A stretch of DNA of 64,000 bases from a virus (taxonomy: Duplodnaviria; Caudoviricetes): IMG/VR virus record IMGVR_UViG_3300015607_001184, positions 4,082 to 68,081 of that record. One strand, given 5' to 3'. The position numbers and the translations under genes were made by a program. Below are positions 3,360-31,500 of the stretch, one piece after another. Each line of letters begins with the position of its first letter. The stretch's first letter is position 1. The notes below the pieces were generated by a model that saw only the letters and a program-made list of their open reading frames with translations, was not told the DNA's origin and did no database searches.

Positions 3360-6300
3360 ACGCATTGATGGACCGCTTGCGCCAGTCTTATGGCGACGAC
3401 GCGGCGCGGCGTGTCGAAAGGGCGGCTGACGAGGTCCATGGCCTCGACCAACGCTACACAGACACGGCCCTTCATCATGCATTTGCAGGTAACGCGGATT
3501 CGGCGCTGGTCGCCATGAAGCCCGGCGATTTCGAGAAATACGCGGCTCGCCTGCCCGAGAAGGGCTATCCGGATTACGGCTATTTCGACTGGGATACGGG
3601 CGCCGACCTCGATTACGACCAGTACATGGACTACCTCAACACGATTGAGCACAGGGGCGGTCTGTCGGACGTGCCGTTCCTCAATGTCGGCCACGAGGAA
3701 GGCGCGGACCTGCCTTATGTCGGGGCTCATGAGGGGCGCCATCGCATGCGCGCCATGGCCAAGGCAGGCAAGCCGACGGGCCTCGTCATGATCCGCCCGT
3801 CGGGACGGCTGGAGGAGAGCCTCCGGCACGGGCCGACCTATGAGACGGCCTACCGCGATTCCAACCAGAAAAGGCAGGCCCTGCTGGATCACCTCGCGGC
3901 GCATGACCGCATGGTCTACCCGCAGAAAGAACGCGACAGGCAGGACGACATTCGCGGCCCGGAGCAGCTTCCGGAGGCCTTTTCCAAAGGCGGGATCACT
4001 GGGAAGCCCTCGACAGTGAAGATTCCCGGCCACGGCGAGATCGCGGCCGACGAGATCCCCGAGGTGATGGCGGCCAAGCGCTCCTATATGGGACACCGCT
4101 TCGGCGACCCGCGTAAGGCGGACATCGACGGCTATACGCCATTCGACGAAGCGCACGCCCGCAAGATCGCCGAGGCCTACGAGGCCATGCAGCACGCCCC
4201 GCACGATCCGGCCGTGCGGCGCTCCTACGAAGCCATGATCGACGAGACGCTCGACCAGTACCACGCGCTCAGGAACGCCGGATACGACTTCCATTTCATG
4301 CGCGACGGCGAGCCTGACCCCTACGCGGAATCGCCCGCGCTGGGCTATCTCGACGCCAAGGATGGCCGCCTGACGGTGTTCCCGACCGATCAGGGCTACG
4401 GCATGTCCATGCTCCACAGCGAGGAGATGAACCCGCTGCTGAAGCGCGTCGGCCGCATCGGCGACCTCGACAACGCCACGGCCAACGACGCCTTCCGGGC
4501 GGTCCACGATATGTTCGGCCACCACGGCCCGGGCAACCCGTTCTTCCGCCACAAGGGCGAGGAGCGGGCGTGGGAAGCGCATTCCAGAATGTACTCCGAC
4601 GACGCGCTCCCGGCGATGACCTCGGAGACGCGCGGCCAGAACAGTTGGCTGAATTTCGGCCCGCACGAGGAGTACAACCGCACCGCCAACGGCGCCGACA
4701 CGATCTATGCCGAGCAGAAGGCAGGCCTGATGCCGGAGTGGACGTGGCGCCGCCACAGGCGCGCCGACGGGGGCTCGATCCCCGGCCGCGAGCTGAACGA
4801 GCTTGGCATGTACTCCAAGGCTCTGGAGGAGGCCAAGGCGATCAGGCAGCCCAAGGGCAAGCTGTCCGATTTCCTGCGCTATCTGAAGGGCGGGCTGGAG
4901 GAGTTCCGGCGTGGCGGGTGGGTGGATCGCGGTGGCTATGCCCGGGGCGGCATCGCCGACTATCAGGACGAACTCGACAGCGCCAACCGCATGATGAGCC
5001 CGGACGAGGAGGGGCTTCTGGCCTATCCGCGCGACCGCTACATTGACCCACACTACCGCGTGGGGGCGCTCAAGGGCTGGACCTTGAACCCGAACCTGAG
5101 GCAGGACAGGTTCCTCGACTACCCCAGCGTCAACGACGACATCGGGGCGCCCTACTTCAACGGCTGGAACGAGAACAAGGGGCGCTTCCGCAACTACGCC
5201 GACGGCGGTGCGGTCGAGCGTGAGCATTTCGAATTCGGCGGCTTTCAGGACAACTCTCGCCCCGGGCAGGCGGGCGACCCGGGTAACTGGGGAGCGTGGG
5301 GCAATGGCACGGAGGACGTGTCGGTACGCGATGCGCAGGCAGCCGGGCTGCGGGCGGGCCTGTCACGCGCCGAAGTGGCCTACGGGCAGGTTCCCGGAGG
5401 TCTTGGCTACCGTGGGGGCAGTGGCACGAGCCTGACGAACCTCCCCGAGCTGAGCGCTGCCAACCTTGCGCGCGCTGGTATCTTCAACCCCGGCGAGCGC
5501 CGGGTGTCAGGAAACCCGGCGGACGCGGCGACGGGCATGGCGCAGCCGGGATCCGTCCGCGAGGCTCTTGGGCTCGGCAAGATGCCCGAGCAGACCCAGA
5601 CGCCGGAGCAGGCGGTGCAGCAGGTTGAGGCGCAGCGCAGGCAGGCTGCCGCCGCTTCCGACCCTTCCGGCTTCAACGGGCTGGCTGGCGGCACGGTGGC
5701 GCTGGCGGCCTTCGGCGCGCTGCCCGGGCAGCACAAGCCCGGCGAGGACATGACGACGCCTGCCGACACAGGGTTCATGTCGACGCCCGAGCAGAACAGC
5801 TACAACCGGTTCATGGACACCGCCCGCAACACCTACATGGAGGCGGGGAACCAGAGCGACGAGGGCATGCTGGGTGTCGCCTTCTCGGCGCCGAACCGCA
5901 CCGCCATCAATTATGGCGGCATTGGCCCCGGGGGCATCGACACCACCGGCTACAACGACCCCAATGCCTCGTTCGACGAGAACGTGACGCGGAATATCTA
6001 CGCCCCCAAACAATACAGCTGGACGAACCCGGCCCTGAACAGAAAGACCGGCGTGGTGAATGTCGACCGCGCTCGCGACATCGCCGACGCCGAAATGGCC
6101 GGGGCGCCGGATCGTGCGCAGCGTGCCTATGCGGCTGCCTATGCGCAGCAGTTCGGAGGGGCGACGGACCCGACCTATGGCGCCGTGTCCTACCACGCCG
6201 ACTATGTCAGCCCGGCGTGGCGCCGGGACGCAGCTTCGCTGGGGACGCCCACGGTCATTGGCGACCACACCTTCTACGGCGGCAGCCCGCCCACGGCCAC

Positions 6301-7795
6301 GCAGGTGGCGGGCCCCGGCGCAGCAAGCGTCCTGTCCACCATGGCGGACCCGTGGGGCTTCTCGCACATGACGCCGGTGAACGATCTGGCTACGGCGCCG
6401 CTGTCGTGGACGGACCGCATCGGCGCGCCCCCGGCAACACCTCTCGGTTCCCCGCGCACGCCCACTCCCGCCTCTGCCTACAGCGTGGGGGAGGATGCCA
6501 CGCCTCTCGGCTCTCCGCGCACGCCGACCCCGGCCACGGCCTATGCCCCGGAGGGCGCCACGCGCACATGGGCGAACCCGATTTCGGTGCCCTATTCCGA
6601 CCCCGGCTTCGAGCGCCCGGGCTACGACATCTCGGTCTATCAGGGCGTCCCGCTGGCCGACATCACGCCGGTGCGTCCTTCCGCGCCGACGCTCACGGAG
6701 CAGGCCTACAACCCGCTGTCGTCGATTCGTGCACCTTCCGTTGTCGACCCGTTCACGGCGAGGAAGGTGCAAACCGAAAGGATCTCGCCGCCCTCCGAGG
6801 AGCCCAGCTACACCCGGGCGCCCTATCACGACACGGTCTACGATGCGCCTGCCGCGACGGCAGCCGCCGTGGCGCGGCGCATGGGATGGCACGACAGCGT
6901 CTACGACGCACCTTCGGCACAGGCATCGCCGCTTGGATCCCCCCGCACGCCGACGCCCGCCAGCGCCTATGCCAGCCCCGAAGCGGCCCCGGCTGCCCCG
7001 GTGGCGCGCCCGGCGGCGCCTTACGGAACGCGCGGGAACCCCCTTTCGGCCGCAGACATGGCTGCCGTCGGGCTCGGCGACGCGACACCGGCGCAGCTGC
7101 GCAGCTATCGCGCCGATATCCCGCGCGGGTCCATGATCAGCTCTGACTCTCCGTACTATGGCACCCGCAACAACCCGTTGTCGGACGCCGACATGGCGGC
7201 TGCAGGCCTTGGCGACGAGCAGTCCTTCTCGAAGAAGTACCTCGGCTTCCGGTCGAACGACGAGGTCGATGCCGACAACAAGCCCTACAAGGATCCCGAG
7301 ACTGGCCAGTGGGTCGATCCGCGTTTCTCGCGCACGCCCGTCGGCATGGCGGCTCTCGGCCTTCTTGGGCTCGGCCTGACCGCCGTCTCGCCGCCGCTGG
7401 GCATCGCCTACGGCCTGTCGGCGCTCATGGGCAAAAGCCCCCTCATCAATGGCGCTGACAGGCTGGCCAGCCGCTTCGGCTTCGACGGCCGCACGACGAC
7501 TACGGATCCCAATGCACCGAGCGCGTGGGGCAGCCTGAAGAGCGGCGTGCAGGGCCAGTCTTACGCGCCCGGCTATGATGGCGCCGGGACAGGGCGCTCG
7601 CTGTCATCGTTCAACGGCAATAGCGGTGGAAACGGCTACAGAATGTACGACCCCGTTCCCGGGCCCGTTGCGAATCCAATCGATGTGAAGTCCAAGAAGA
7701 AGGCAGCGGAACCGAAACCGGAACCGGTCAGGCCCTCCGATTGGAATGACATGGCCTCGTGGCAGCAGGAACTCTGGAGTGACACCTATGGCTGA
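3341..7795 (+). CDS. Large multidomain (polyvalent) virion/internal protein: ParB-like domain, HDxxGH domain, SleB-type cell wall hydrolase, repeat tail
   Basis: ATG 3341 with GGAGG upstream (track start 3176 too early); HEGRHR motif, RAVHDMFGH..GEE motif, EA..GM..V..NR / QYSW / D.TYGAVSYHA.YV.P.W / IGDHTFY hydrolase motifs. Confidence 0.75.
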   Translation: MRRADLNALMDRLRQSYGDDAARRVERAADEVHGLDQRYTDTALHHAFAGNADSALVAMKPGDFEKYAARLPEKGYPDYGYFDWDTGADLDYDQYMDYLNTIEHRGGLSDVPFLNVGHEEGADLPYVGAHEGRHRMRAMAKAGKPTGLVMIRPSGRLEESLRHGPTYETAYRDSNQKRQALLDHLAAHDRMVYPQKERDRQDDIRGPEQLPEAFSKGGITGKPSTVKIPGHGEIAADEIPEVMAAKRSYMGHRFGDPRKADIDGYTPFDEAHARKIAEAYEAMQHAPHDPAVRRSYEAMIDETLDQYHALRNAGYDFHFMRDGEPDPYAESPALGYLDAKDGRLTVFPTDQGYGMSMLHSEEMNPLLKRVGRIGDLDNATANDAFRAVHDMFGHHGPGNPFFRHKGEERAWEAHSRMYSDDALPAMTSETRGQNSWLNFGPHEEYNRTANGADTIYAEQKAGLMPEWTWRRHRRADGGSIPGRELNELGMYSKALEEAKAIRQPKGKLSDFLRYLKGGLEEFRRGGWVDRGGYARGGIADYQDELDSANRMMSPDEEGLLAYPRDRYIDPHYRVGALKGWTLNPNLRQDRFLDYPSVNDDIGAPYFNGWNENKGRFRNYADGGAVEREHFEFGGFQDNSRPGQAGDPGNWGAWGNGTEDVSVRDAQAAGLRAGLSRAEVAYGQVPGGLGYRGGSGTSLTNLPELSAANLARAGIFNPGERRVSGNPADAATGMAQPGSVREALGLGKMPEQTQTPEQAVQQVEAQRRQAAAASDPSGFNGLAGGTVALAAFGALPGQHKPGEDMTTPADTGFMSTPEQNSYNRFMDTARNTYMEAGNQSDEGMLGVAFSAPNRTAINYGGIGPGGIDTTGYNDPNASFDENVTRNIYAPKQYSWTNPALNRKTGVVNVDRARDIADAEMAGAPDRAQRAYAAAYAQQFGGATDPTYGAVSYHADYVSPAWRRDAASLGTPTVIGDHTFYGGSPPTATQVAGPGAASVLSTMADPWGFSHMTPVNDLATAPLSWTDRIGAPPATPLGSPRTPTPASAYSVGEDATPLGSPRTPTPATAYAPEGATRTWANPISVPYSDPGFERPGYDISVYQGVPLADITPVRPSAPTLTEQAYNPLSSIRAPSVVDPFTARKVQTERISPPSEEPSYTRAPYHDTVYDAPAATAAAVARRMGWHDSVYDAPSAQASPLGSPRTPTPASAYASPEAAPAAPVARPAAPYGTRGNPLSAADMAAVGLGDATPAQLRSYRADIPRGSMISSDSPYYGTRNNPLSDADMAAAGLGDEQSFSKKYLGFRSNDEVDADNKPYKDPETGQWVDPRFSRTPVGMAALGLLGLGLTAVSPPLGIAYGLSALMGKSPLINGADRLASRFGFDGRTTTTDPNAPSAWGSLKSGVQGQSYAPGYDGAGTGRSLSSFNGNSGGNGYRMYDPVPGPVANPIDVKSKKKAAEPKPEPVRPSDWNDMASWQQELWSDTYG

Positions 7796-9467
7796 TCTCG
7801 GCAAGGGCATGAGGGACAGGGCTCGCCGCCTGACGGCTGACGAGAAGACCTCCGGAATGGTGACGGGGCCGGTGTGGGATAGCGAGGAGCCTGCTGGCCA
7901 GATGCCGAGCCGCTCCAAGTTCGCTCATGGCGGCAAGATCGCGATGGGCAAGAATGCAGCCAAGCGGCTTGACCAGTACGCCCGGGGCGGCGCGGTGAAG
8001 CGCAAGACCGGAAAGACCACGATCAACATCATCATCGGCGACAAGCAGGCCGCGCCACCGGCGCCACCGGCTGCCGTCGTGCCCCCTCCGATGCCTCCGA
8101 TGGCGCCGCCGATGGCGCCCCCCATTGACCCGACTGGCGGAGCCGGTCCCGGACCAGCAGCAATGCCGCCCGTCGGCCCGATGAATCGCGGAGGCTCCGT
8201 CGGCTTCAAGAAGGGCGGATGCGTGCGCCCCGGGCGCGCCTTCGGCGGGCGCACCGAGATCCGCTCGCAGGGGTCAGACCCGGAACCCGGAAAGAAGCAC
8301 CACAAGATTTCTGCCGCCAGCGCGCGTGGCCGCAAGGGCCTGAAGACAGGCGGATGCGCCGAACCTGACGCCGACGACCGACCGGCCCGCGTCAAGCGCT
8401 ACGCCGGTGGCCGTGTCGGCTATGACAGCGGCGGCGTTCTCATGGATGGGCCGCAGGAGGGCTACTACGAAGCCCCGGCATGGCTGCGCTGGCTGATGGG
8501 GCGCGGCGCGCAGGCCGCGCCGCAGGTCAACACCCGCGCCCCCTACCACGACACCGTCTATGACGCCCCTCCGCCGCCGCGCCCGCAGTACCTGCCGGAG
8601 AACTCGATGCGCCCGAGGCCCCCCACCATGCAGGGGCCTCAGACGGCGGTTCAGATGGCGGCCATCCGCGCTGCGCAGGAGGAGATGCTCCGCCGCGCTG
8701 CGGTCGCTGCCGCCGCCGCTAGGCAGCCGCCGCTGCCGTTGCGCCGCCCTGCTGACCTAGCGGCCAGCCCGTCCTTCATGCAGCGCTTCGTGTCTGGTCA
8801 GTGGACGGCACCGCAGATCGACACCGCGCGCACCTTCGCGCATGGCGGTCGCGTCGGGCGGGCTTTCGGTGGCCCGATGGGCTTCCCCGCCTCGGCGCAG
8901 TCCTCGTCCTCGTCCTCCACGTCGGCCTCGGCTGGCGGCGGGAACTGGGGCGGTGGATTCAGCAGACCGGCTCCGCAGATGCCGCAGGCCCCGCAGATGC
9001 CGCAGTACCAGCTGCAGGCTCCTCCGGGCTTCACCATGCAGAACATACCGACGCCTCCGGGCTGGACCGGACCGCAGATGCAGGCCCCGGTGTGGAACGG
9101 AATGCAAATTCCTCCGCAGATGCAGACGCCGCCGCAGATGCCGCAGATGTCCGCTCCGGGGCAGGGCGCCGTGCCAACGGGCGACCCGCAGGGCACGCCC
9201 ACGCAGGCCCAGCAGTTCGCCCAGCAGCTGATGGGCGGAGGGCGCAACTTTGCCCAGCAGGCCATGGCGCGCTGGGGGCAGGGCGCTCCGGGCATGGGCG
9301 CTGGGCGCTGGGGCGGCGGGCCCGGAAACTGGCACCGCCAGAGCGAAGTGCAGGGGTCTGGGGCGGCCCCGGGCGGGTTCAAGAAGGGCGGTGCCGTCCA
9401 CATGACCGCCGGATCCCGCAGCGGAGAGGGGCGGCTGCAGAAGGTGAAGCTGCAAAAAGGGTGCTGA
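7788..9467 (+). CDS. Low-complexity Pro/Gly/Gln/Met-rich protein with 11 xxxGG motifs, probable internal virion protein
   Basis: ATG 7788 with GGAG upstream, overlapping previous stop; composition and position in head module. Confidence 0.6.
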   Translation: MADLGKGMRDRARRLTADEKTSGMVTGPVWDSEEPAGQMPSRSKFAHGGKIAMGKNAAKRLDQYARGGAVKRKTGKTTINIIIGDKQAAPPAPPAAVVPPPMPPMAPPMAPPIDPTGGAGPGPAAMPPVGPMNRGGSVGFKKGGCVRPGRAFGGRTEIRSQGSDPEPGKKHHKISAASARGRKGLKTGGCAEPDADDRPARVKRYAGGRVGYDSGGVLMDGPQEGYYEAPAWLRWLMGRGAQAAPQVNTRAPYHDTVYDAPPPPRPQYLPENSMRPRPPTMQGPQTAVQMAAIRAAQEEMLRRAAVAAAAARQPPLPLRRPADLAASPSFMQRFVSGQWTAPQIDTARTFAHGGRVGRAFGGPMGFPASAQSSSSSSTSASAGGGNWGGGFSRPAPQMPQAPQMPQYQLQAPPGFTMQNIPTPPGWTGPQMQAPVWNGMQIPPQMQTPPQMPQMSAPGQGAVPTGDPQGTPTQAQQFAQQLMGGGRNFAQQAMARWGQGAPGMGAGRWGGGPGNWHRQSEVQGSGAAPGGFKKGGAVHMTAGSRSGEGRLQKVKLQKGC

Positions 9468-9671
9468 TTGATCACAGTCGACATTCGCTTCAGGCAGCTG
9501 CTTGAGCGGAGAATCGCCTCCCTTGTTGAGGAGGTGCGAGACAAGTTGGAGGCCGGTCTGCAGGAGAAGGAGTATCTCCAGCAGGTCGGCTTCTTGCGTG
9601 CTCTGAGGATGCTCTCAGAGGAAGACGGCCTTCTCGACGAAATCGAGACGGAGATACTGGAGGGAAGATGA
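9468..9671 (+). CDS. Hypothetical helical protein
   Basis: Fills gap between adjacent genes, coupled stop/start, protein-like composition. Confidence 0.65.
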   Translation: MITVDIRFRQLLERRIASLVEEVRDKLEAGLQEKEYLQQVGFLRALRMLSEEDGLLDEIETEILEGR

Positions 9672-10099
9672 GCGAAGTTTACGAGATAGGTGGCGGCGCC
9701 ATGCGCAAGGCCACGATGAAGATGCACCACGATGTCGATCCCAAGAAGGATCTTCTGGACAGGATTGGAGACATCAGTGAGATGGAATTGTTCCATAACC
9801 TGATCCTCGTCGCCATGTACGTCCGGCCGGAGAAGACGGCATCTGGCATCCACCTGCCCAATTCGGTCCGCAAGGAAGACGAGTATCAGGGCAAGGTCGG
9901 CCTCGTCCTGAAGGTCGGGCCGATGGCGTTCGTGGACGACGCGGTGAACTCGTTCGGCGGCATCAAGGTGTCGCCGGGGGAATGGGTAACCTTCCGCACG
10001 TCGGACGGCTTCCAGATCACCATCAACGGGGTGCTGTGCCGGATGCTGCAGGACTCGCACATCAAGACGCGCATTCCTGATCCAGACTACGTGTTCTAG
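9668..10099 (+). CDS. groES: GroES-like co-chaperonin
   Basis: PEKTASGIHLP mobile loop, GLVLKVGP, VSPGEWVTF..SDG, RMLQDSHI. Confidence 0.85.
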   Translation: MSEVYEIGGGAMRKATMKMHHDVDPKKDLLDRIGDISEMELFHNLILVAMYVRPEKTASGIHLPNSVRKEDEYQGKVGLVLKVGPMAFVDDAVNSFGGIKVSPGEWVTFRTSDGFQITINGVLCRMLQDSHIKTRIPDPDYVF

Positions 10100-10103
10100 T
10101 TTC

Positions 10104-11505: not shown

Positions 11506-11506
11506 C

Positions 11507-12771: not shown

Positions 12772-12789
12772 TCTGAGGAGATCTGAACC

Positions 12790-13727: not shown

Positions 13728-14228
13728 ATGCTCAATGCAGATCACCTCCGCAGCCTTCTGGACTACGACCGGGCCACGGGCGTCTTCGTGTGGAAGATGC
13801 CCGCTGGCCGCTACGGTCGCATTCCGGCTGGGACGCGCGCAGGCAGCTACACGAGCGCCGAGGGGTATGGCTACGTCACGATTGCGGGAAAGAGCTACCG
13901 CCTTTCCCGCCTCGCGTGGCTCTACGTCCATGGCGAGTGGCCGAAAGATCAGATCGACCACGTCAATGGCGATCCTTCCGACGACCGCATCGCCAACCTG
14001 CGCGAAGCGACACAGTTCCAGAACAAGGCGAATTGCAGGCGCTACGCCAACAATACGTCAGGGTTCAAGGGCGTCTCGCTCGACCGGTCAAAGGGCCTCT
14101 ACAGGGCCTACACGAACAAAGATGGCCGCCGGGTCTATCTCGGCCGCTATCGCACCCCTGAAGAGGCTCACGCGGCCTACGCCGCTGCGGCCATGTCCAT
14201 TCACCGCGATTTCGCGAGGTTCACATGA
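13728..14228 (+). CDS. HNH homing endonuclease with AP2-like C-terminus
   Basis: RLAWLYVHGEWP, IDHVNGDPSDDRIANLR, NNTSGFKGV, YLGRY.TPEEAHAAY. Confidence 0.9.
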   Translation: MLNADHLRSLLDYDRATGVFVWKMPAGRYGRIPAGTRAGSYTSAEGYGYVTIAGKSYRLSRLAWLYVHGEWPKDQIDHVNGDPSDDRIANLREATQFQNKANCRRYANNTSGFKGVSLDRSKGLYRAYTNKDGRRVYLGRYRTPEEAHAAYAAAAMSIHRDFARFT

Positions 14229-15135: not shown

Positions 15136-15381
15136 ATGAAGGGTCGCAAGGGGTCGCATCCGGCGAAGGCTCGCCTTGGGAACAAGGTCCACGCCCCGCA
15201 CGGAGACGGCAAGCAGCCGCCGTTCTCGGACGCCCCCGCCGCGCGTGGCAAGGTCACGCCGACGGAGGTCCCGATGCTCGGCAAGATCAGCGCCATGCGG
15301 CTCGACCGGCCCGGGCGGAAGCGGGGAGGGGCCTGCGGCTCCGAGCTGTCGCCGCTCTCCATGGCCGCCAAGAGCATCTGA
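15136..15381 (+). CDS. Small basic protein with RKRGG motif, possible core/internal protein
   Basis: RBS GAGGAGG; K/R/P/G-rich; carries one xxxGG motif. Confidence 0.6.
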   Translation: MKGRKGSHPAKARLGNKVHAPHGDGKQPPFSDAPAARGKVTPTEVPMLGKISAMRLDRPGRKRGGACGSELSPLSMAAKSI

Positions 15382-20916: not shown

Positions 20917-21594
20917 ATGGCGGTCAGCGGAACGATCACGTTCAACCCCACGATGGCAGATTGCACGGTCAATGCTTTCGGGCGGCTGCTCATCAGGGCC
21001 GACCAGCTGACGCCGCAGCATCTGCGCGACGCGCGGTTCGAAGCCAACCTCCTGTGCCAGACGTGGCAGCAGAAGGGCGTCAACCTGTGGACCGTGGAGC
21101 TGCAGACCCTGACAACCGTGCAGGGCACGGCAACCTATACGCTGGCGGCCGGGACGATCAGCCTGCTCGACACCTACATCACGGCTGAAGGGCAGGACAT
21201 GGTGCTGCCGCCCGTCTCGCGCACCGACTATGCAAGTCAGCCGAATAAGACTCAGCAGGGGCGCCCGAACATGATGTGGGTGAACCGGCAGTCGCCGACG
21301 CCCACCATGACCCTGTGGCCGACCCCTGATGCGGCCTACGTCATCAGCTACTACCGCCTGCGGCAGCTGTACGACGTGAACCTCGACAGCACCGGCAACC
21401 CCGACGTGCCGCTGCGCTTCACCGACGCCTTCATCTCCGACCTGTCATGGCGGCTGTCGCGCCTGTGGCGCCCGGACCTTGAGGACAAGCGCAAGCAGGA
21501 CGCCATGGACTCGTGGAACCTTGCCTCCGGCGACGATGTCGAAGAGGGCATCCAGATGTTCATCTCGCCGTCCATCGGGGCCTACTTTCCATGA
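20917..21594 (+). CDS. Head-tail adaptor/connector protein
   Basis: MAVSGTITF, WQQKGVNLWT, QGRP..W..RQ....LWPTPD, DVP.RF.DA; RBS GAGGAG. Confidence 0.7.
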   Translation: MAVSGTITFNPTMADCTVNAFGRLLIRADQLTPQHLRDARFEANLLCQTWQQKGVNLWTVELQTLTTVQGTATYTLAAGTISLLDTYITAEGQDMVLPPVSRTDYASQPNKTQQGRPNMMWVNRQSPTPTMTLWPTPDAAYVISYYRLRQLYDVNLDSTGNPDVPLRFTDAFISDLSWRLSRLWRPDLEDKRKQDAMDSWNLASGDDVEEGIQMFISPSIGAYFP

Positions 21595-22124
21595 TCGTCT
21601 ACCGCGTGACCAACCGGCTGAACGGAGACGCCTACATCGGTGTCACCGGGCGCTCGGCCAAGCGCCGGTGGTGGGAGCATCGCCGCAACGCGCGGCGCGG
21701 CGAGCCGGGGCGGCTTTGTGACAGTATCCGCAAATGGGGCGAGGACGCCTTCACTATGGAGGTTGTCGCGCGCTTCTCGTCGAACGTCGAGGCGTGGGCC
21801 GCAGAGGTGCGTCTGATCGCCGACGAAGAGCCCGTTTTGAACATGGCACGAGGCGGCCACGGGAACGCCCGCCCGGCGTCACCCAAGACAAAAGCCAAGC
21901 TGGCCGAGGCGGCGCGAGGCAAAGCCTTCAACGGCTACGCCCACCTCGGACCCATAGCTACCGCCAAGGCTGTGCGCTGCGTCGATGACGGCATCGTCTA
22001 CCCAAGCGCAGCAGCGGCGGCTCGCGCATACGGCGCAAGACCGAACTGCGTATCGATGGTGTGCGCAAAAGTAAAATATCGCCATAGTGCTGCTGGCAGA
22101 CGTTTCGAATACGTGGAGGCTTAA
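21591..22124 (+). CDS. GIY-YIG homing endonuclease with NUMOD-type DNA-binding tail
   Basis: IVYRVTNRLNGDAYIGVT, RWWEHR, LN..GG, KAVRCVDDGIVYPSAAAAAR. Confidence 0.85.
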   Translation: MIVYRVTNRLNGDAYIGVTGRSAKRRWWEHRRNARRGEPGRLCDSIRKWGEDAFTMEVVARFSSNVEAWAAEVRLIADEEPVLNMARGGHGNARPASPKTKAKLAEAARGKAFNGYAHLGPIATAKAVRCVDDGIVYPSAAAAARAYGARPNCVSMVCAKVKYRHSAAGRRFEYVEA

Positions 22125-22126
22125 TC

Positions 22127-22390: not shown

Positions 22391-22391
22391 C

Positions 22392-23030
22392 ATGGCGATG
22401 GACTACAACACCTACCTGACCCGTCTGGCGGCCATGGCGACCGCCTCGACGACCGACACCAAGTTCACGACCATCGTGCCAGCGGTCATCGACTATGCCG
22501 AGCAGCGCATGTATCGCGAGCTGCAGCTCGTCTCGACGCAGTCGCGCAATCAGGCCGGGCTCACGTCGTCCGGCGTCCGGACTTTCAATTTCCCGACACG
22601 CTTCGTCATCGCCGAGGCGATAAACCTGATCATCTCCAGCCAGCGCTTTCCGCTGATGCCAGCCAGCCGGGAATTCATCGACTTCGTGTACGGCACGGCA
22701 TCGAACGGCGTCCCGGTCTATTACGCTATGGAGACGGACCAGAGCATCTCTCTGGGGCCCACCCCGAACGGCGCCTATACGGTCGAGATCGTCGGCAGGG
22801 TCCGCCCCACGCCCCTGTCGTCCGGAACGCCGAACACCTTCCTGACGGACTACCTCCCGGACGCCTTCCTCGCCTGCTCGATGATCTTCTATTCGGGCTT
22901 CCAGAAGAATTTCGCGGCGCAGTCATCCAACCCGCAACAGGGCACCAGCTGGGAGGACCAGTACACGAAACTGATGGCCTCGGCGCAGGTCGAGGAATTG
23001 CGCAAGCGCTTCACCCAAGCGCCGCAGTGA
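22392..23030 (+). CDS. Tail adaptor/tubular protein
   Basis: IDYAEQRMYREL, GVPVYYA, LGPTPNGAYTVE, TFLTDYLPDAFL; position before hub. Confidence 0.65.
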   Translation: MAMDYNTYLTRLAAMATASTTDTKFTTIVPAVIDYAEQRMYRELQLVSTQSRNQAGLTSSGVRTFNFPTRFVIAEAINLIISSQRFPLMPASREFIDFVYGTASNGVPVYYAMETDQSISLGPTPNGAYTVEIVGRVRPTPLSSGTPNTFLTDYLPDAFLACSMIFYSGFQKNFAAQSSNPQQGTSWEDQYTKLMASAQVEELRKRFTQAPQ

Positions 23031-23038
23031 GGTGAGGC

Positions 23039-25102
23039 ATGGCATTCGGATCCCTTCGCCTTCGGCCGGGCGTGCAAGTTGAGGCGACGCCTGCCTTGAA
23101 CGAGGCGGGCGTCTCGGCAAGCCAGCTGATCCGCTTCCGCGACGGCCTGATCGAGAAACTGGGCGGCTGGACCAAATATTATGGCTACCCGTCCAGCGGG
23201 AAGATCCGGCACCTGCATGCATGGCAGGATCTGACGAAGGTCGGGCGCCTCGCCATCGCGGCCGAGCAGTCTCTGGTGTCGGCATCGAGCACCACGACGG
23301 GCGTCACCATCACGCCGCAGCGAACCACCTCGTCGATTGCCGTGGCCCTGTCGACCGTCAACGGGTCCCCCACGGTCACGGTGACCGACAACGCCTCCAA
23401 CATGACGACCAATGACGTGGTCGTCTTCCAGACGCCTGTCTCCGTCGGCGGCCTGATCATCTTCGGCGCCTATGCCGTCGCATCGAGCATCAGCGCGAAC
23501 CAGTACACGATCACGGCCACGGATCTGGTGCAGGGGTCGCCGACCTATGGCCAACCAAAGAACGCCACGTCGACCGTCGTCTCCGGCGGCGCGGTGCCAT
23601 CCTTCGCCACCACCAACGGCTCCTTCGAAGTCACGGTGACGCTGAACAACCATGGCCTGACGACGCCGGGCCAGATCGTCGCCTTCCCAGTGTCGACCAC
23701 CGGCGGCGGCGTGACGATCTACGGCACCTATTCGGTGATCACCGTCCCGGGCGCCAACACGTTCACGATCTATGTCTCCAACTCGGCCTCGTCGACGACG
23801 ACCTTCTCGATGAACGCCGGAAACGCCTATCTGGACCGCTGGATCGCCGTCGGCCCGGGAGCGGCCGGTTCGGGCTACGGCATCGGCGGCTATGGGTCCG
23901 GCGGCTACGGAACCGGTTCCCCGACGCCGGGCCACACCGGCACGCCGATCACCGCGACCGACTGGGATCTGGATAACTGGGGATCGTATCTGCTGGCGCA
24001 ACCTGCGCAGGGCCCGTGCTTCTGGTGGGACCCCGTCGGCGGCTTCCAGACGATGCGCATCATCACGAACGGGCCGATGATCGGAACCGGCATGTTCGTC
24101 GCCATGCCGCAGCGGCAGATTGTCGTCTACGGCGCCGAGCTGGGCGGCTATCAGGACCCGCTTCTGGTGCGCTGGTGCGACGTGGACGACTTCTCAAATT
24201 GGATCGCGTCCACGACCAATCAGGCGGGCTCCTACCGCATCCCGCGCGGATCCGGCATCATCTCCGGCATCCAGACATCCCAGCAGGCCCTGCTGTGGAC
24301 GGACCTTGCCCTGTGGTCGATGCAGTACCTCGACGGCCTCCTTGTATGGGGCTTCAACGAGATCGGCGCCGGGTGCGGCATCATCTCCAAGAAGGCCCGG
24401 GCCGCGCTTGGAGGGACCGTCTACTGGATGGGGCGCTCGCAGTTCTTCCGTTACTCGGGGTCTGGCGTCGAGCCGGTGGATTGCTCGGTTTGGGACGTGA
24501 TTTTCCAAGACCTAGACACCGACAACGCCAGCAAGATCCGCATGGGCGCGAACTCGATGTTCAACGAGATCGTGGTCTATTACCCATCCCTCTCCGGCGG
24601 AACGGGCGAGAACGACAAATATGTGAAGCTGAAGGCGACGACCGGAGAGTGGGACTACGGCACCCTCGCGCGCACGGCATGGATCGACCAGAACGTCCTT
24701 GGCCAGCCCTTTGGCGCCGGGACGGACGGTTTCACCTACCAGCACGAGAGCGGGCGCAACTCCGACATCAACGCCATGACCAGTTGGTTCGAAACGGGCT
24801 GGCTCATGCTCAACGAGGGCGAGCAGTTCACCTTTGTCGACTGGCTGCTGCCCGACTTCAAATGGGGGCTCTACAACGGGTCGCAGGACGCCGACATGCT
24901 GATCACGGTCAGCTGGGTCGAGTACCCTCAGGATGCGCCAAAGTCAGCCGGTCCATTCACGGTGACGCAGCTGACGCAGGCCATCACCGACATCCAGTTC
25001 CGTGCCCGGATGGTCAAGTTCAGGATCGAGTCGCAGGACATCAATTCGTTCTGGCGCATTGGCAACGTGCGCTACCAGTACGCCCCAGATGGAACGTGGT
25101 GA
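23039..25102 (+). CDS. Tail hub / packaged-DNA stabilisation protein (P22 gp10-like)
   Basis: IRFRDG..EK.GGW, DNWGSYL, LLVRWCD, AGSYRI..GS.I, WTD.AL.SMQY, YWMG..QFF.Y.G..V..VDC.V.D. Confidence 0.8.
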   Translation: MAFGSLRLRPGVQVEATPALNEAGVSASQLIRFRDGLIEKLGGWTKYYGYPSSGKIRHLHAWQDLTKVGRLAIAAEQSLVSASSTTTGVTITPQRTTSSIAVALSTVNGSPTVTVTDNASNMTTNDVVVFQTPVSVGGLIIFGAYAVASSISANQYTITATDLVQGSPTYGQPKNATSTVVSGGAVPSFATTNGSFEVTVTLNNHGLTTPGQIVAFPVSTTGGGVTIYGTYSVITVPGANTFTIYVSNSASSTTTFSMNAGNAYLDRWIAVGPGAAGSGYGIGGYGSGGYGTGSPTPGHTGTPITATDWDLDNWGSYLLAQPAQGPCFWWDPVGGFQTMRIITNGPMIGTGMFVAMPQRQIVVYGAELGGYQDPLLVRWCDVDDFSNWIASTTNQAGSYRIPRGSGIISGIQTSQQALLWTDLALWSMQYLDGLLVWGFNEIGAGCGIISKKARAALGGTVYWMGRSQFFRYSGSGVEPVDCSVWDVIFQDLDTDNASKIRMGANSMFNEIVVYYPSLSGGTGENDKYVKLKATTGEWDYGTLARTAWIDQNVLGQPFGAGTDGFTYQHESGRNSDINAMTSWFETGWLMLNEGEQFTFVDWLLPDFKWGLYNGSQDADMLITVSWVEYPQDAPKSAGPFTVTQLTQAITDIQFRARMVKFRIESQDINSFWRIGNVRYQYAPDGTW

Positions 25103-25153
25103 TGTCAGTCGCGTCCTACAATGTTCTAGAAACAAAATCAAAGGAACAAGAAC

Positions 25154-25363
25154 ATGCTTAATGACCTCGTGACCGCTTTGAAAAATGCAGTAACGGCCAT
25201 ATCGTTAATCAATCAGACGCTGCGCAGCGTCTTCCCCTACGCCACGGGGACATCATCGACCGCAACAGCCGGTGCCGCATCGCTTCCGGCAAATCCGGTC
25301 GGCTTCATCACGATCACCCTTCCCGACGGCACGTCGGCGAAGGTGCCGTACTACAACACTTGA
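25154..25363 (+). CDS. Small tail protein
   Basis: C-terminal LPANPVGFITI..G...KVPYY motif seen in phage tail proteins; RBS AAGGA. Confidence 0.55.
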   Translation: MLNDLVTALKNAVTAISLINQTLRSVFPYATGTSSTATAGAASLPANPVGFITITLPDGTSAKVPYYNT

Positions 25364-25370
25364 GGGCGGC

Positions 25371-27971
25371 ATGGCTGACGATTTCACAGAAGACCTCGCC
25401 TCGACCGCCGATCTGGCAGACGCCACCACGTCTGACGAGCAGCATCGCATGGAGATCGAGCGAGCCAAGCGCCGCACGATCAAGACCGTCTCGCTGACCG
25501 ACAACGAGAAGGCGCTGCTAGACCGCGTGGCCGACAAGAACCAGCGCAAGAAGATCGCGGAATCGATTAAGAGGACCAAGGGCCGTTTCCCGGTGTCGGA
25601 GGGCTGGGCCGCACCGGAAGCGAGCAAGCTGGTCACCAACAAGGCGGGTGAGCTGAAGACCGACAAGAGCGGGACGCCAAAGATCGGCTACAAGGGCATC
25701 GGCTTCAACTACGACCGCGACGACGCCGGAAAGAAGCTGCAGCGCTACACGCCGGAGTACGACCGCGCCGTCAAGGCGGTAACCAACCGGGCGCTGAACG
25801 AGATCCGTAAGACAATCGCGCGCGCCGAGGCCGGTGACCTGAATGCCCAGAAGACGCTGCGGCAGGTCGGCTGGTATCGCGAGGCGATGAAACGCGAGAT
25901 CGACCGGCGCGGCGGTGCCCACATGGCCTTCGCCGACCTGCTCGGGGCGACATCCCCAAACACCGTCGTCTCGGAGAACTATAAGCTGGCCGACCTTGCC
26001 CAGCAGGGCCACGCACGGGGCGACTTCGACGCACAGAACGAGTTCATGGCCCGGTACAACGGCAACATGAACGACTACCCTGAAGATCAGCTGATCAGAA
26101 AGAAGAGCGGGGCCCAATTCGGCATGAACAGCCGAACCGCCTCCATGGCGATGACTGACCGCTGGTCGCAGGAGGAGCCCGGGCAGGCACCCAAGGCGCG
26201 CAATTTCTCCGGCAACCTGTCGGGCCGCTCGGACAAGGCCACCATCGATGTGTGGGCGGCGCGCTTCCTCAACCGCATGGCCCAAAAGGCCCGCGTCCCG
26301 GTGCCGTCGCAGATGGGCGTCGAAGGCGACATGCGCCCTGACAGACCCGACCGCAAGATGGTCGGCCCGGTCCGGCTGCGCGCCTCCGGTGAGTTCGGCT
26401 TCGGGCAGGACGTGTTCGACATGCTGGCCAAGCGCCTGAAGACGACAGGCGAGCTGGCGCCATACCTGAAAGAGCTTGGCTACAAGCACGCCACGCCAGC
26501 CGACCTGCAGGCGCTGACGTGGTTCATCGAGAAAGAGCACTGGGCCAAGAACGACTGGACCTCAGCGGCAGGCGAGGGTGGCTCATTCGAAGATGAGCAG
26601 GCGCGCCAGCCCTTGCACCGCTATCAGGCAGGGTTCTCGATCCAGCAGGACGCGCCGCCGAGCGACGAAATGATGCACGAGGCCGCCCAGCACATCCACA
26701 ATGGGTTGGCGAGCGACGACAAGGTGCGCGTCTTCCGCGTCAATCCGACCTATGGCCGGTACGGCGGCGAGAACGAGCGCAGTTTCGACTCCGAGGTCAC
26801 CGCGCACCCGGACTGGGATCCGAGCGACTGGATGATCCGTCATCTGGAGCTGGCCAAGCAGCACAACCAGAAGGACGTGTTTTTCTCACGCCGCCTCGAC
26901 CCGGAGGAGGCCGACGAGCACCCCAACGCGCGCCCGGGCGTCGAGATCTATTTCAAGAACCGCAAGGCCATGGAGGCGGCCCAGCCGGTCCTCGACAGGT
27001 TCACGAACAAGGGCATTGACGGCTTCACCTACATCACCGACCTGCGTCACTCCCACCGCACCGCCAAGGGCGCCGACAGCAAGGACTACGTCGGCGTCAG
27101 GCTGCAGTGGGTGCCGGAGATCTCGCAGCGCTGGGACGACGAATTGCGCGACCGCTGGGAGCAGGATCCAGAGGCCCTGAAGGCCGACAAGATGGACGCT
27201 CTGGAGCGCATGCAGGACGTGATTCACCATCTTGATAAGCATAAGCACGGCATTGTTGACGCACGCATCCATAATTATGATACAGTGGTATCTGGGAAAG
27301 AGGACTACGATGACCACATCCGTGAACTCAGAGAAGCCCAGCGCACATCTGGAAATGCTGCGGGAGCAGCTCGCACGGTCGCTCCGCAAGTACGGGGAGG
27401 ACTCTCTCTCCACGAGAACATTGCGCGCCGAAATCGCGCGCTTCGAACGGCGGAGGAAGGAGGGTCGTCAGGACCACCACCAGCACTGGACGGCGGGCCG
27501 GACCTGAAATTCAAGAAGGGCGGCAAGGTCCCGCCCTACGAGCCGGGGTCGCCGATCCACCATCCGGTGGCCGACGATCCTATCATCATTGGCGCCATCG
27601 AGAGCGACGTGCCCGGCAGGACCGACAAGCACGAGTGCTCGGTCCCCGCCGGTTCCTACGTCATCCCCGCTGACGTGGTGAGCGCGCTCGGCCAAGGCAA
27701 CACCTTGGCTGGGCAGCGGGTGCTTGACCAGCGCTTCCGGCAGGGCCAGCACGGCCTCCCCGACATTCATGCCCACATGGCCAGAGGCGGCCCCGCCACG
27801 ACGGTCCCCGTCGTTCTGGCGGGTGGCGAGTATGTCGTCGCCCCGGCAGCCGTGGCGCGCGCTGGTATGGGCAACCTTGACCGGGGGCACCGGGCGCTCG
27901 ACAAGTTCGTGCGAGCAACCCGCGCCAAGACCGTGAAGACGCTGCGCAAACTGCCTCCGCCGAAGAAGTGA
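25371..27971 (+). CDS. Polyvalent internal/ejection protein: helical DNA-acting domain, SAM-lyase-like domain, tandem GEYV domains
   Basis: ATG 25371 after GAGGG; motifs GWY, LLGATSP, KARNFSGNL.G..ATIDVWAAR; GRY..ENERSF..LAKQHNQKDVFF; GRTD...GSYVIPADVV..LG and GGEYVV. Confidence 0.7.
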   Translation: MADDFTEDLASTADLADATTSDEQHRMEIERAKRRTIKTVSLTDNEKALLDRVADKNQRKKIAESIKRTKGRFPVSEGWAAPEASKLVTNKAGELKTDKSGTPKIGYKGIGFNYDRDDAGKKLQRYTPEYDRAVKAVTNRALNEIRKTIARAEAGDLNAQKTLRQVGWYREAMKREIDRRGGAHMAFADLLGATSPNTVVSENYKLADLAQQGHARGDFDAQNEFMARYNGNMNDYPEDQLIRKKSGAQFGMNSRTASMAMTDRWSQEEPGQAPKARNFSGNLSGRSDKATIDVWAARFLNRMAQKARVPVPSQMGVEGDMRPDRPDRKMVGPVRLRASGEFGFGQDVFDMLAKRLKTTGELAPYLKELGYKHATPADLQALTWFIEKEHWAKNDWTSAAGEGGSFEDEQARQPLHRYQAGFSIQQDAPPSDEMMHEAAQHIHNGLASDDKVRVFRVNPTYGRYGGENERSFDSEVTAHPDWDPSDWMIRHLELAKQHNQKDVFFSRRLDPEEADEHPNARPGVEIYFKNRKAMEAAQPVLDRFTNKGIDGFTYITDLRHSHRTAKGADSKDYVGVRLQWVPEISQRWDDELRDRWEQDPEALKADKMDALERMQDVIHHLDKHKHGIVDARIHNYDTVVSGKEDYDDHIRELREAQRTSGNAAGAARTVAPQVRGGLSLHENIARRNRALRTAEEGGSSGPPPALDGGPDLKFKKGGKVPPYEPGSPIHHPVADDPIIIGAIESDVPGRTDKHECSVPAGSYVIPADVVSALGQGNTLAGQRVLDQRFRQGQHGLPDIHAHMARGGPATTVPVVLAGGEYVVAPAAVARAGMGNLDRGHRALDKFVRATRAKTVKTLRKLPPPKK
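27310..27507 (+). CDS. Overprinted 65-aa protein in +1 frame inside the 25371-27971 gene
   Basis: GAGGA 6 nt before ATG; GC-ending codons in this frame; helical sequence LREQLARSLRKYGEDSLSTRTLRAEIARFE. Confidence 0.55.
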   Translation: MTTSVNSEKPSAHLEMLREQLARSLRKYGEDSLSTRTLRAEIARFERRRKEGRQDHHQHWTAGRT

Positions 27972-28029
27972 CGGGATAGCGAATCCGTGCGCGCTCGTGC
28001 ATGCATGTGATGCCGATCTGGGGAAGCGA

Positions 28030-28512
28030 ATGGTCGACTACGCCACAGAGGTCCGTCTCGCGGTCCAGTCCGACGAAGAGGACATCATGGTCCTGTGCCG
28101 GTTACTCCACAAGGAGAACGGCCTGTGGACGCTCAACGAGCAAAAGGTGCGCCATATGCTTCGGCGCGCGTGGCGTAAAGAATTTGCCATTGTCGGAATT
28201 GTCGGGAAACCCGGCGCCCTTGAGGGCATGATCTTGCTGGTGCTCGACCAGCCTTGGTACTCGGACGACTGGATGCTTGAGGAGATGCTCAACTACGTTC
28301 ACCCGGAGCATCGCAAGTCGGGCCACGCGAAGCGCCTTGTCGAGTTCGCGAAGAAGACATCGGAGGGGCTTGGTATCCCTCTGATGATCGGCATCATCTC
28401 AAATGAGCGCACGGAAGCGAAGGTAAAGCTGTACCAGCGGCAACTGGGAAGCCCGGCTGGAGCCTTCTTTGTCTACGGAGCCCGAACGGGCGACGTGGGG
28501 GCGGAGCACTGA
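28030..28512 (+). CDS. GNAT-fold acetyltransferase preceding ejection proteins
   Basis: PWYSDDWMLEE..YVHPEHRKSGHAKRLVEFAK acetyl-CoA motif A. Confidence 0.75.
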   Translation: MVDYATEVRLAVQSDEEDIMVLCRLLHKENGLWTLNEQKVRHMLRRAWRKEFAIVGIVGKPGALEGMILLVLDQPWYSDDWMLEEMLNYVHPEHRKSGHAKRLVEFAKKTSEGLGIPLMIGIISNERTEAKVKLYQRQLGSPAGAFFVYGARTGDVGAEH

Positions 28513-28513
28513 C

Positions 28514-31500
28514 ATGGGTTCGAAGAGCAGCAAGCCGACCACCACGGTAACTCAGGCCGGGATCCCCGACTACCTGAAGAAGAATTACGAGACGCTGACC
28601 AAGGCGGCGACCAAACTGGCGACGCAGCCATTCAACCCGTACAAGGGCGAGATGGTCGCGGGCCTGACGGCGGCTCAGGAGCAGGCCATCGCCCGCATGG
28701 GCGAAATTCAGGGCATTGGCGACCCGTATTTTCAGGCTGGCGCAGACGCGCTGAGCAAAGTCGGGCAGTTCACCGACAAGGCGCTGGAATACGGCGACAA
28801 GGCGCTAACCTACACCGACAAGGGGTCGCAGTACGGGGCGACCGCCGCAGAGATCGCGGGCGACCTCCGGAACACGCAGATCACGCCCATCGAGTGGAGC
28901 CAAGAACAGCTCGACAAGTACATGAATCCCTATCAGGCCGAGGTCATTCGGGCTACGATGGGGAACATCGCCGAGAACAACGCCCAGCAGATGCAGGGCC
29001 TCATCGGCAACGCCATTTCCAAGGGCGCATGGGGCGGCGACCGGGCAGGCATCGCTCAGGCCGCCATGGCGCGCCAGCAGGATTTGGCGGCAAACCAGAC
29101 GCTGGCGCAGCTCAACGCGCAGAACTACCAGCAGGCGATGGCGCAGTTCAACGTGCAGCAGCAGGTTGACTTGCAGCGGCAGCAGGCCAATGCGGCCCTG
29201 AAGGCGCAGGCTGGCGGCATGTACACGGGCCTTGGCGGCCTGCAGGCACAGCTGGGTGGCGTGACCGGCCAGCTGGGGAGCATGGCGGCGCAGCTCGGGC
29301 AGGTGCAGGCTGGCGTCGGATCTGCCTATGGCTCTCTCGGCACGGGCATCTCACAGGCGGCGATCAATCAGGCCATGGGCCTTCTGCAGGCGGGGACCGT
29401 CGAGCAGCAGACCAATCAGGCCTACGACAATGCCCAGTATCAGGAGTTCATGCGCAGGCAGCAGTTCCCGTACCAGCAGCTTGGCTTCCTGTCGAACATC
29501 TACTATGGCCTCCCGGCGACCAACACCGGCACTTCGTCGACTTACGCTCCGGCCCCGTCCATGGGGTCGCAGATCGGTGGCGCGCTGCTCACCGGCCTTG
29601 GCGCCCTGTCTGACCGGCGGGCGAAGAAAGACATCGAGGGCCTCGGCCAGCTGAACGGCCATAACCTGTACAAATTCAAGTACAAGGGCGATCCGGACGA
29701 GCGCGAGCAGGTCGGCTTCATGGCCGACGAGGTCGAGAAGACGCACCCCGAAGCCGTCTCGGTGCGCCCCGACGGCCTGAAGCAGGTCAATTACGCTCTC
29801 GCCATGGCGGCCAAGTCTGCCGACGAGGTGACCCGCCAGAAGCGCGCATTTGGCGGCGGCCTCGGCGTCATGGACGATCCGTCCTTCGACCCCACCGCCG
29901 GAGGGTTCTCCGGCGTCGAGATGCCTCTGGATCGGCTGGCCCGGGCGCGCGCTGCGACCTCGGCAATCGAGTCCGGCGGGCGCTATGACGCTCTCGGCCC
30001 CATGGTGAAGGGCGACCGCGCCTATGGCCGCTATCAGGTCATGGGCAAGAACATTCCCAGCTGGACGGAGATGTATGCCGGGCGCCGCATGACGCCGGAC
30101 GAGTTCCGCGCCGACAAGGGGGCTCAAGACGCGGTCTACAACGGTCGCATGGGGATGTATCTCGACAAGTACGGCCCGGAGGGCGCCGCCCGGGCGTGGT
30201 TCACAGGATCCCCGACGGGCAAGGGCTCGGATGGGTACACCAGCGCCGACGACTACGCCTCCCGGTTCATGAAGGGGTACAACGGCGGAAACGCCGACAT
30301 CCCGCGCGGGGAGGAGGCGTCTTACACGCCGCCCGCTTCGGCCAATGATGGGTCCGATTTCAAGGGCGGTCTGGGCTGGTTCGACAAGCCGGGGCTGCTG
30401 ACCGGGGACATGATGTCGGGCGACATCCGCATGGGCCTCATGCAGGCTGGCGCGGCCATGATGGCTTCCAAGAGCCCCTATGCCGGGCAGGCGATTGGCG
30501 AGGGGCTGCAGTCCGGCCTTGGCGCCTATGCGGAGCTGCAGGAGAAGCGCCGCCGGGATGCTCTGGCGCAGTCGCAGATTGCCCACAGCAAGGGCGCACT
30601 GGGTCTGGCCGAGCGGCGGCTCAGTGCGGAAGTTCCGGAGATCGAAGCAAGGACCGCCGAGCTGAAACAGCGCACTGCGGCAGAGCGTTGGGATATTCGC
30701 CCCGGGCTCACTGGTTGGCAGGTCATCGACAGGACCAACCCGCAGGCTGGCGCTGTGATGGTGCCGTTTGGCGGACGATTCCCCGATGGCACAAAAGCCC
30801 CTCCCGCACCGGCTGGAGCATCGCCTGCCGGTGGCGGAGGCGCGGGCGGGGCTCCTACATCCCCTCCGGCTTCGCCCGCGCCAACCGCGCCCGCCGCGAC
30901 CACCGACCCAACGTCGGAATCCGGCAACCATTACGATCCGATCACCGGCAATGTGCGCCCCGGCCTGCCGCAGGACGGCTTCGCGCCGCCGCCCGCGCGC
31001 AGCGAGCCCGGCATCACCGAGATGGACCACAACGGCAACCGCTATCTGTCGGACGAGCCCGACGATCTGGCTCAGCCGGAGCAGTACCCGACCAACCCGC
31101 AGGCCTTCAACCCGGAAGCGCAGCCGGGCCTGTTGGCGGCGGGGCGCGAACAGTTGATGGCCGGGCAGGAAGCGGCCGAGAAGGCGCAGCAGGCCAAGAT
31201 CACCGCGCAGAACATGCGCGAGGCCATGTCGATCTTGAACAGCAATCGCTTCACCAAGGGCGGCGCAAATTTCGAGGAGAGGCTTGCGCTGGTGAAGAAG
31301 ATCAACATGATCGCTAACCTGATGGGCAAGCAGGCGCCCTACCAGAACGAGGAGGCGGCAGCCAACTCGCTGCAGAAGGACACGTTCCGCATGGGCATGC
31401 AGGCGCTGCAGTCGCTGGCGGGCGGCCAGCGCGAGGCGGGCTTCATGCAGCAGGCTGGCATCGGCGCCGTACCCAATGGCGAGCAGAACGGGCTTGGCCA

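Follow-up and report, generated by a model that had tools for sequence, protein, structure and literature searches.

Why do several virion proteins of one phage repeatedly carry a short peptide in which an aromatic or basic residue stands three positions ahead of a Gly-Gly pair? We addressed this question for a stretch of 64,000 nucleotides (hereafter the window; IMGVR_UViG_3300015607_001184 positions 4,082-68,081), which is nearly the whole of a 68-kb IMG/VR virus record. A sequence-only reading of the window had proposed that five proteins of the virion module share a [F/Y/M/R]-x-x-G-G motif acting as a processing site or a capsid-loading code, and every peptide that it reported is indeed present at its position. 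Our analysis suggests that the motif is a junction element at the module borders of proteins ejected with the DNA, and we tentatively interpret it as a maturation-cleavage site that would be cut before A-x-G-G and not after GG. The five open reading frames (ORFs), and the parts of them discussed here, are the following.

3341-7795, + strand: large multi-domain internal or ejection protein, 1484 amino acids from the ATG at 3341 (AlphaFold2 (AF2) domain map, motif enrichment)
3995-4747, + strand: folded cassette of the phrog_3170 type, residues 219-469 of the 3341 protein (predicted local distance difference test (pLDDT), 172 homologues)
7788-9467, + strand: intrinsically disordered Gly/Pro/Gln-rich protein with 11 motif copies (shuffle enrichment, comparison with P0121)
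15136-15381, + strand: small basic ORF with RKRGG at 15316 (translation)
25371-27971, + strand: ejection-module protein with a variable N-terminal 700 amino acids (DUF7178) and a conserved C-terminal domain
27474-27968, + strand: the C-terminal 165-amino-acid domain of that protein, with two hairpin-plus-helix 'hook' units
28514-31786, + strand: internal-virion-protein-D-like ejection protein (phrog_4287, Pfam PF13884)

We compared the motif counts with those in 500-1000 within-protein shuffles, over a set of 76 genes called from third-position G+C. The pattern [FYM]xxGG is found 7 times in 3176/3341-7795 with 1.8 expected (p 0.002) and 7 times in 7746/7788-9467 with 1.2 expected (p<0.002). 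The excess is borderline in 25272-27971 (2 against 0.46, p 0.07), and 28469-31786 has none (1 against 1.8); ORF 15136 has 0 copies of this pattern. The strict form [FYMW]xxGGx[VIL] has 10 copies in the five ORFs, where 0.7 are expected, and 0 copies in the other 15,518 residues of the gene set, where 2.1 are expected; 7788-9467 by itself has 7 against 0.13. The loose form [FYMRL]xxGG occurs 20 times in the rest of the proteome with 23.5 expected, so it includes chance hits. The enrichment over the rest of the proteome that had been put forward as a check is seen for the strict form, and the motif is narrower than first drawn: a basic run, then [F/Y/M/R]-[A/K]-x-G-G-x-[V/I]. The peptides of the type [aromatic or basic]-A-x-G-G in the window are FAHGG, YARGG, RAFGG, MARGG, YADGG and RADGG. 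ORF 15136 has 0 strict copies and 1 loose copy against 0.31 expected; its RKRGG at 15316 looks like chance and is unsupported as part of the system. Of the proposed five, 3341-7795 and 7788-9467 are supported by enrichment and 25371-27971 and 28514-31786 by homology.

Could the motif simply be a chance product of a Gly-rich, high-GC composition? The five ORFs are Gly-rich (8-15%), the loose pattern occurs elsewhere in the proteome at the expected rate, and chance explains the copy in ORF 15136 and, on counts alone, also that in 28469. However, the composition-preserving shuffles are strongly exceeded, and both the position and the sequence of the motif are conserved in relatives, so that composition has next to no credibility as a general account. 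The same peptide is encoded with synonymous differences and in different flanks, hence these are not recent DNA copies. For the main copies, chance and recent duplication are excluded.

The two motif-richest genes, 3341-7795 and 7788-9467, lie directly 3' of the portal gene.

82-2904, + strand: portal (phrog_1216, E 7.8e-21; tblastn to the portals of MW202675, HTVC027P and DSL-LC04)

The best relative of this portal is that of the uncultured phage MW202675 (55% identity, tblastn), and more distant relatives are found in pelagiphage HTVC027P, phage DSL-LC04, roseophages CRP-901/902 and Caulobacter phage RW. In the 3341-7795 protein the copies are FSKGG at 3980, RADGG at 4760, YLKGG at 4880, FRRGG at 4904, YARGG at 4937, YADGG at 5195 and FEFGG at 5228. 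An AF2 model spanning residues 1-760 has a first domain at 1-199, a disordered stretch at 200-216 that holds most of FSKGG (214-218), a segment with pLDDT >90 at 220-470, and a disordered stretch at 473-491 that holds RADGG (474-478). The pLDDT is <50 in both 200-216 and 473-491, and the remaining copies fall in a long low-confidence region. The cassette at 219-469 is bracketed in this way by FSKGG upstream and RADGG downstream.

This cassette has 172 short homologues, nearly all of which align to ~217-470. Of the 18 homologues extending 60 residues or more beyond the cassette, 14 have the motif no more than 30 residues past it, compared with 6 of the 98 that end there (Fisher p 2e-10, a value that overstates independence since the homologues are related). 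That is, the motif appears when a further domain is fused downstream of the cassette and is mostly absent when the protein stops there. Such a fusion-junction association, together with variable cargo between conserved ends, would also be expected of a recombination joint, i.e. a short conserved coding segment at cassette borders that aids domain exchange and has no role in the protein. But 15 nucleotides are too short for homologous exchange, the copies of one peptide show synonymous differences and have unlike flanks, and the conservation is at the peptide level. We regard a recombination joint as very unlikely. In MW202675 the post-portal cargo is divided among four genes with two motif copies in each, and FKRGG...FAQGG precedes the cassette.

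The 3341-7795 protein also has a SleB-type cell-wall hydrolase, followed by Pro-rich repeats and a hydrophobic segment. In its C-terminal half we located three Pro-rich repeats (LGSPRTPTPA..., 6400-7000) and a hydrophobic, membrane-like stretch at ~7330-7440, which fits a periplasm-spanning, membrane-inserting ejection protein.

The 7788-9467 protein is built differently, with an Atlas model pLDDT of 0.41. Its copies are FAHGG at 7920, YARGG at 7977, MNRGG at 8181, FKKGG at 8205, RAFGG at 8235, LKTGG at 8340, the RYAGG/YDSGG pair at 8400 and 8421, FAHGG at 8835, RAFGG at 8859 and FKKGG at 9378, several of them arranged as tandem pairs. The copies in 3341-7795 and most of those in 7788-9467 are bare, i.e. 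without a hairpin-helix unit. The sole detectable homologue of 7788-9467 is P0121 (53% identity), in which most motif islands are kept while the Pro/Gln-rich spacers have diverged and the RYAGG/YDSGG pair has no counterpart; a search of cultured phages gave no match. Its C-terminal tail (9375-9464; GG-x-V...AGS-x-SGEGRLQK) is common to P0121 and a 382-amino-acid protein of MW202675 (SGEGRLEK, L001:30700-30846), a similarity to the MW202675 protein that BLAST missed. The peptide TRAPYHDTVYDAP is common to 3341-7795 (6812-6850) and 7788-9467 (8532-8570).

Eleven copies in a fully disordered protein, and the many copies that are tandem or close to protein ends, would suit a docking or structural repeat that stays uncut. 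Such a repeat would provide multivalent contacts or kinked hinges without proteolysis, holding the ejected proteins together or to the portal, the nozzle or the tail-tip lumen while the chains thread the channel. We return to this possibility after the remaining proteins.

The copies in 25371-27971 have a fuller setting. Each hook unit of the C-terminal domain (27474-27968) is preceded by the motif, FKKGG at 27510 and MARGG at 27777. The alignment consensus of the two units is [F/Y/M/R]-A-x-G-G, then a hairpin (GSYVIPAD or AAGGEYVI), then helices, and among the motif copies of the window a hairpin G-E-[F/Y]-V plus helix was found after the motif in this domain only. The hook unit has an invariant Glu and a near-invariant His and Asp. 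In the AF2 model of the domain the core has pLDDT >90, and the strands 52-64 and 110-122, with helices after each, make two hairpin-helix units. Both motifs lie in low-confidence stretches and are not docked on the domain in the AF2 monomer.

A word-indexed search with the C-terminal domain (C-domain) gave 188 hits, and an exhaustive one gave 2,272 cluster representatives (50% identity) at E<=1e-3 and 1,601 at E<=1e-10. The domain is always at the extreme C-terminus of its proteins, which range from 149 to ~1,500 residues. Most homologues begin with a DUF6496-like N-terminal helix followed by a further motif copy, and their variable middles carry LPD23, ART-PolyVal, InPase, lysozyme and NUDIX domains. 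Outside the C-terminal domain, 120 of these homologues have 169 copies against 69.5 expected, with the logo [RK][RK]x[RK][GK]-[YFM]-A-[DE]-G-G-x-V-D. In MW202675 a stand-alone protein of 193 amino acids has just the N-terminal helix and, after it, the motif and the C-terminal domain. Both copies in 25371-27971 are supported by homology and not by counts, relatives having the motif at the same positions.

This is a very common phage domain (>1,600 clusters at 50% identity), and it has no Pfam, PHROG or NCBIfam model. Foldseek of the domain model against the PDB reached a best E of 1.4, with nothing at E<=0.001, and a wide VIA-align comparison gave a best Z of 2.9; these fold searches exclude no family. 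A cultured-phage search with the domain matched two metagenomic records only. The motif regions were likewise without hits in Pfam at E up to 10, NCBIfam and PDB sequences, and literature searches on the motif and on tape-measure cleavage motifs turned up no account of it.

Is the motif confined to particular proteins in relatives of this phage? We surveyed the gene neighbourhood in 79 of the IMG/VR loci, which number 576 or more. Besides 25371-27971 and 28514-31786, this neighbourhood has the following genes in the window.

20917-21594, + strand: SU10-type adaptor, first paralogue
22392-23030, + strand: SU10-type adaptor, second paralogue (SU10_adaptor, E 1.2e-18)
23039-25102, + strand: nozzle-like gene (phrog_3287)
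27997-28512, + strand: GNAT acetyltransferase (Pfam Acetyltransf_1/7)
31787-34903, + strand: ejection-module protein

The order, anchored by the adaptor and nozzle genes, is adaptor (70/79), nozzle (75), C-domain protein (77, median 199 amino acids), GNAT (71) and 28514-like protein (65), and MW202675 has the same gene order. Across the 79 loci [FYMW]A.GG occurs 121 times in 28514-like proteins (16.5 expected by shuffling) and 41 times in C-domain proteins (2.2 expected). The counts are at about chance in the nozzle (6 against 8), the adaptor (0 against 0.7), GNAT (0 against 1) and all other ORFs (16 against 15.2). In 73 of the 77 C-domain proteins the motif follows the conserved N-terminal helix, which would also be in keeping with a docking repeat. 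The claimed absence of the motif from capsid, adaptor, nozzle and replication genes holds in the window and likewise in the 79 related loci. The motif is a feature of ejected proteins, common to thousands of metagenomic phage proteins. A genome-wide tag is not what we see.

The single copy in 28514-31786 gains support from the same relatives. This protein matches PF13884 (Peptidase_S74; E 2.9e-9) at residues 381-430 of the 28469 frame, ~29609-29758, and RAFGG at 29843 lies just after this S74-type region. In 28514-like relatives the first [FY]A.GG copy lies just after the S74-type region, the position of RAFGG in the window, and R-A-F-G-G is a canonical variant that also occurs after the N-terminal helix of relatives. 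Since relatives carry the motif at the equivalent position, we take this copy to be real by homology. The conservation that had been proposed as a check is found in P0121, in the C-domain relatives and in the 28514-like relatives. The S74-type chaperone domain is unusually internal in this 1,090-amino-acid protein, where it is followed by the motif and lysozyme-like regions instead of being C-terminal, so that self-cleavage there would split the protein.

What, then, could the motif do? Tail tape-measure proteins offer the closest parallels. The tape measure gpH of phage lambda has HFATGG, 16 residues, GEFVFTKEATSRIGVGNL, then YATGG, in line with the FATGG/YATGG peptides that the sequence-only reading had named. 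Its HFATGG, GEFV hairpin-helix unit and YATGG, in a piece adjoining the Gly-rich cleavage region, resemble the window domain, but lambda has one unit and not two in tandem. By hhalign, residues 729-773 of gpH align with the second unit of the C-terminal domain (E 6.4e-4, probability 28%). The protein is cut in its Gly-rich C-terminal region at a site and by an agent that are unknown, and the gpHC piece remains in the particle (PMC12617516). The available structures resolve only 818-849 and leave ~690-817 unresolved (PMC10721106). TIGR01541 spans gpH 472-813, including the GG-hook region (729-782), and the window proteins reach neither TIGR01541 nor PF09718 in NCBIfam and Pfam scans. In gp46 of phage JBD30 there is FASGG, then the segment 1022-1066, then RHATGG. 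For this segment the authors of the JBD30 study predict a hook, made of a hairpin and two helices, by which the chain is anchored in the baseplate, and they mention cleavage as speculation only (PMC11445458). As in the window, an A-x-G-G motif precedes a hairpin-plus-helices hook.

Phage T5 provides a mapped bond. Mass spectrometry places a cut in pb2 after R1127, giving pb2* and pb2C (PMC10038345). The cut sequence, FVPR/AEGG with the slash at the bond, falls directly before A-E-G-G; the whole protein of 1,219 residues has just two A.GG sites. Following ejection, pb2* is anchored by its new C-terminus between subunits of the baseplate hub (PMC10038345). As proposed for the window proteins, pb2 is an ejected, channel-forming protein in which the cut follows a baseplate-anchoring segment and frees an enzyme-like piece (PMC10038345). 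It differs in having a single site and an Arg instead of an aromatic residue before the Ala, and in being a siphovirus tail protein. The T5 segment has no significant profile alignment, so the link to T5 is at the motif level only.

These parallels bear on the idea of a capsid-loading tag, one that the portal, the scaffold or the inner surface of the capsid would recognise in the manner of the T4 capsid-targeting sequence or encapsulin cargo peptides. The motif-richest genes follow the portal gene, the large portal-adjacent protein of DSL-LC04 has 3 copies in its first 60 residues, and one disordered protein of the window has multiple copies, as does some encapsulin cargo, in which multiple tag copies lie in a disordered protein. 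However, siphovirus tape measures, proteins of the tail lumen that never enter a capsid, have the same module, so the motif is not restricted to capsid cargo and such a tag is unlikely. The copies are also mostly internal and at domain borders, stand-alone homologues of the 219-469 cassette usually have no copy after it, and the largest ejection-module protein (31787-34903) has 0 copies. The capsid-loading code of the sequence-only reading is poorly supported, and we consider it improbable.

The processing site fared better, although not in the form first suggested, for which the di-glycine sites of adenovirus and African swine fever virus (ASFV) were the comparison. In those viruses the sites are (M/I/L)-x-G-G/x or G-G/x, and a cysteine protease (C5 or C63) cuts after the GG. 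The window shares with them a Gly-Gly in a viral structural polyprotein context, but its hydrophobic residue is one position further upstream. The aromatic residue stands five positions before the bond after GG, which does not agree with a hydrophobic P4 and GG at P2-P1, and the register is therefore a misfit. What stands of the processing proposal is the position in domain-border linkers, the association with fusions and the T5 cut at AEGG; the mapped bond is before A-x-G-G and not after GG.

A further parallel comes from the polyvalent proteins of phages and conjugative elements, which are multi-domain, virion-delivered and built with swappable effector cassettes (Iyer et al. 2017, PMC5512222). 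The C-domain homologues resemble them in carrying LPD23, ART-PolyVal, InPase, lysozyme and NUDIX domains, and 3341-7795 likewise combines several unrelated effector domains, its folded parts numbering three or more, with the 219-469 cassette and the SleB hydrolase among them. Iyer et al. propose processing by embedded zincin-like or assemblin-like peptidases, and the words 'glycine' and 'linker' are absent from their text (PMC5512222). In our scan of the structural-module proteins no zincin-like or assemblin-like peptidase of the polyvalent-protein type was found.

We read the motif as a conserved short linear element, the flexible neck of an old module, at the module borders of proteins ejected with the DNA. 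In its full form it precedes a ~45-residue hairpin-plus-helix hook, two of them in 25371-27971 and one near the C-terminus of siphovirus tape measures. In its bare form it separates the cassettes of 3341-7795, follows the S74-type region of 28514-31786 and is strung along the disordered 7788-9467. As maturation joints, at least a subset of the copies would be cleaved at the bond ahead of A-x-G-G, on the pattern of T5 pb2, and the fused cassettes of one gene could then act as separate pieces after assembly or ejection; the hook units may anchor the remaining chain in the tail channel. We might also speculate that GNAT acetylates the newly exposed N-terminal Ala. Its gene, without the motif, lies between the C-domain and 28514-like genes as a fixed part of the ejection module (71/79 loci).

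Several observations weigh against this reading. Among the structural-module proteins scanned there is no peptidase family except S74, and cleavage is known only for T5, after R1127 (PMC10038345), and approximately for lambda (PMC12617516). The alignments of JBD30 gp46 (hhalign E 0.02, probability 2%) and lambda gpH (probability 28%) to the C-terminal domain are weak, and that of the T5 pb2 C-terminus to the domain profile is not significant (hhalign). Many copies have K, S or R instead of A after the aromatic residue, and the fusion-junction contrast was drawn among related homologues. Moreover, there are tandem arrays with 2-5 copies within tens of residues and copies only a few residues from protein ends, which would be odd for cleavage sites and would better fit binding or structural repeats. 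The uncut docking repeat gains from these copies, and also from the adjoining hook, a proposed baseplate anchor of the tape measures of T5 and JBD30. However, we identified no partner for it, the AF2 monomer leaves the motifs undocked and at low pLDDT, and it leaves unexplained why the one mapped tape-measure cut falls exactly at such a motif. We hold the docking repeat possible, though on the doubtful side, and tentatively retain the junction that is cut before A-x-G-G.

A bolder form of the cleavage reading is that x/A-x-G-G is a general maturation code of the ejected proteins of tailed phages, common to the internal proteins of podoviruses and the tape measures of siphoviruses, and that the hook unit itself is the agent or a cofactor of the cut. 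We consider this unlikely. If true, it would account for the cleavage of both gpH and pb2, and GNAT might modify the newly exposed N-terminal alanine.

New in our analysis are the finding that internal proteins of a podovirus use the motif, the family of two-unit C-terminal domains with its fixed gene neighbourhood, the fusion-junction statistic and the observation that the T5 cut coincides exactly with an A-x-G-G site; the lambda region lies inside TIGR01541, and the T5 cut was already published. The junction reading would link podovirus ejection proteins with siphovirus tape measures through one small module, and it points to the bond before A-x-G-G as a concrete place for the cut in lambda gpH, so far unexplained. 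How large polyvalent virion proteins are assembled from, and perhaps released as, exchangeable cassettes would be explained as well.

The typical C-domain protein (~199 amino acids) is encoded directly downstream of the adaptor and nozzle and ahead of the large internal proteins. It can be compared with T7 gp14 and P22 gp7, small ejection proteins whose genes follow those of the nozzle or tail, and it matches T7 gp14 in gene position and size. We found no sequence or fold similarity between the C-domain and T7 gp14 or P22 gp7, and the analogy is one of gene order and size only. RTX and KGG repeats were considered as relatives of the motif and dropped on their consensus. A resemblance to the GroES mobile loop (S-A-G-G-I-V-L) was also dropped, the motif lacking the hydrophobic tripeptide.

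The window has a G+C content of ~64%, and its + strand carries the structural genes from the portal through a tail-collar protein (34893-35804). Two further genes of this strand are the following.

9668-10099, + strand: GroES (Cpn10)-like gene of the head module
starting at 12790, + strand: Mu-gpT-like major capsid gene

The GroES-like gene is kept in DSL-LC04, HTVC027P, RW and MW202675. The SU10-type adaptor is present as two paralogues (20917-21594 and 22392-23030), and homing-endonuclease-like genes of the HNH and GIY-YIG types are found inside the structural operon (13728-14228 and 21513-22124).

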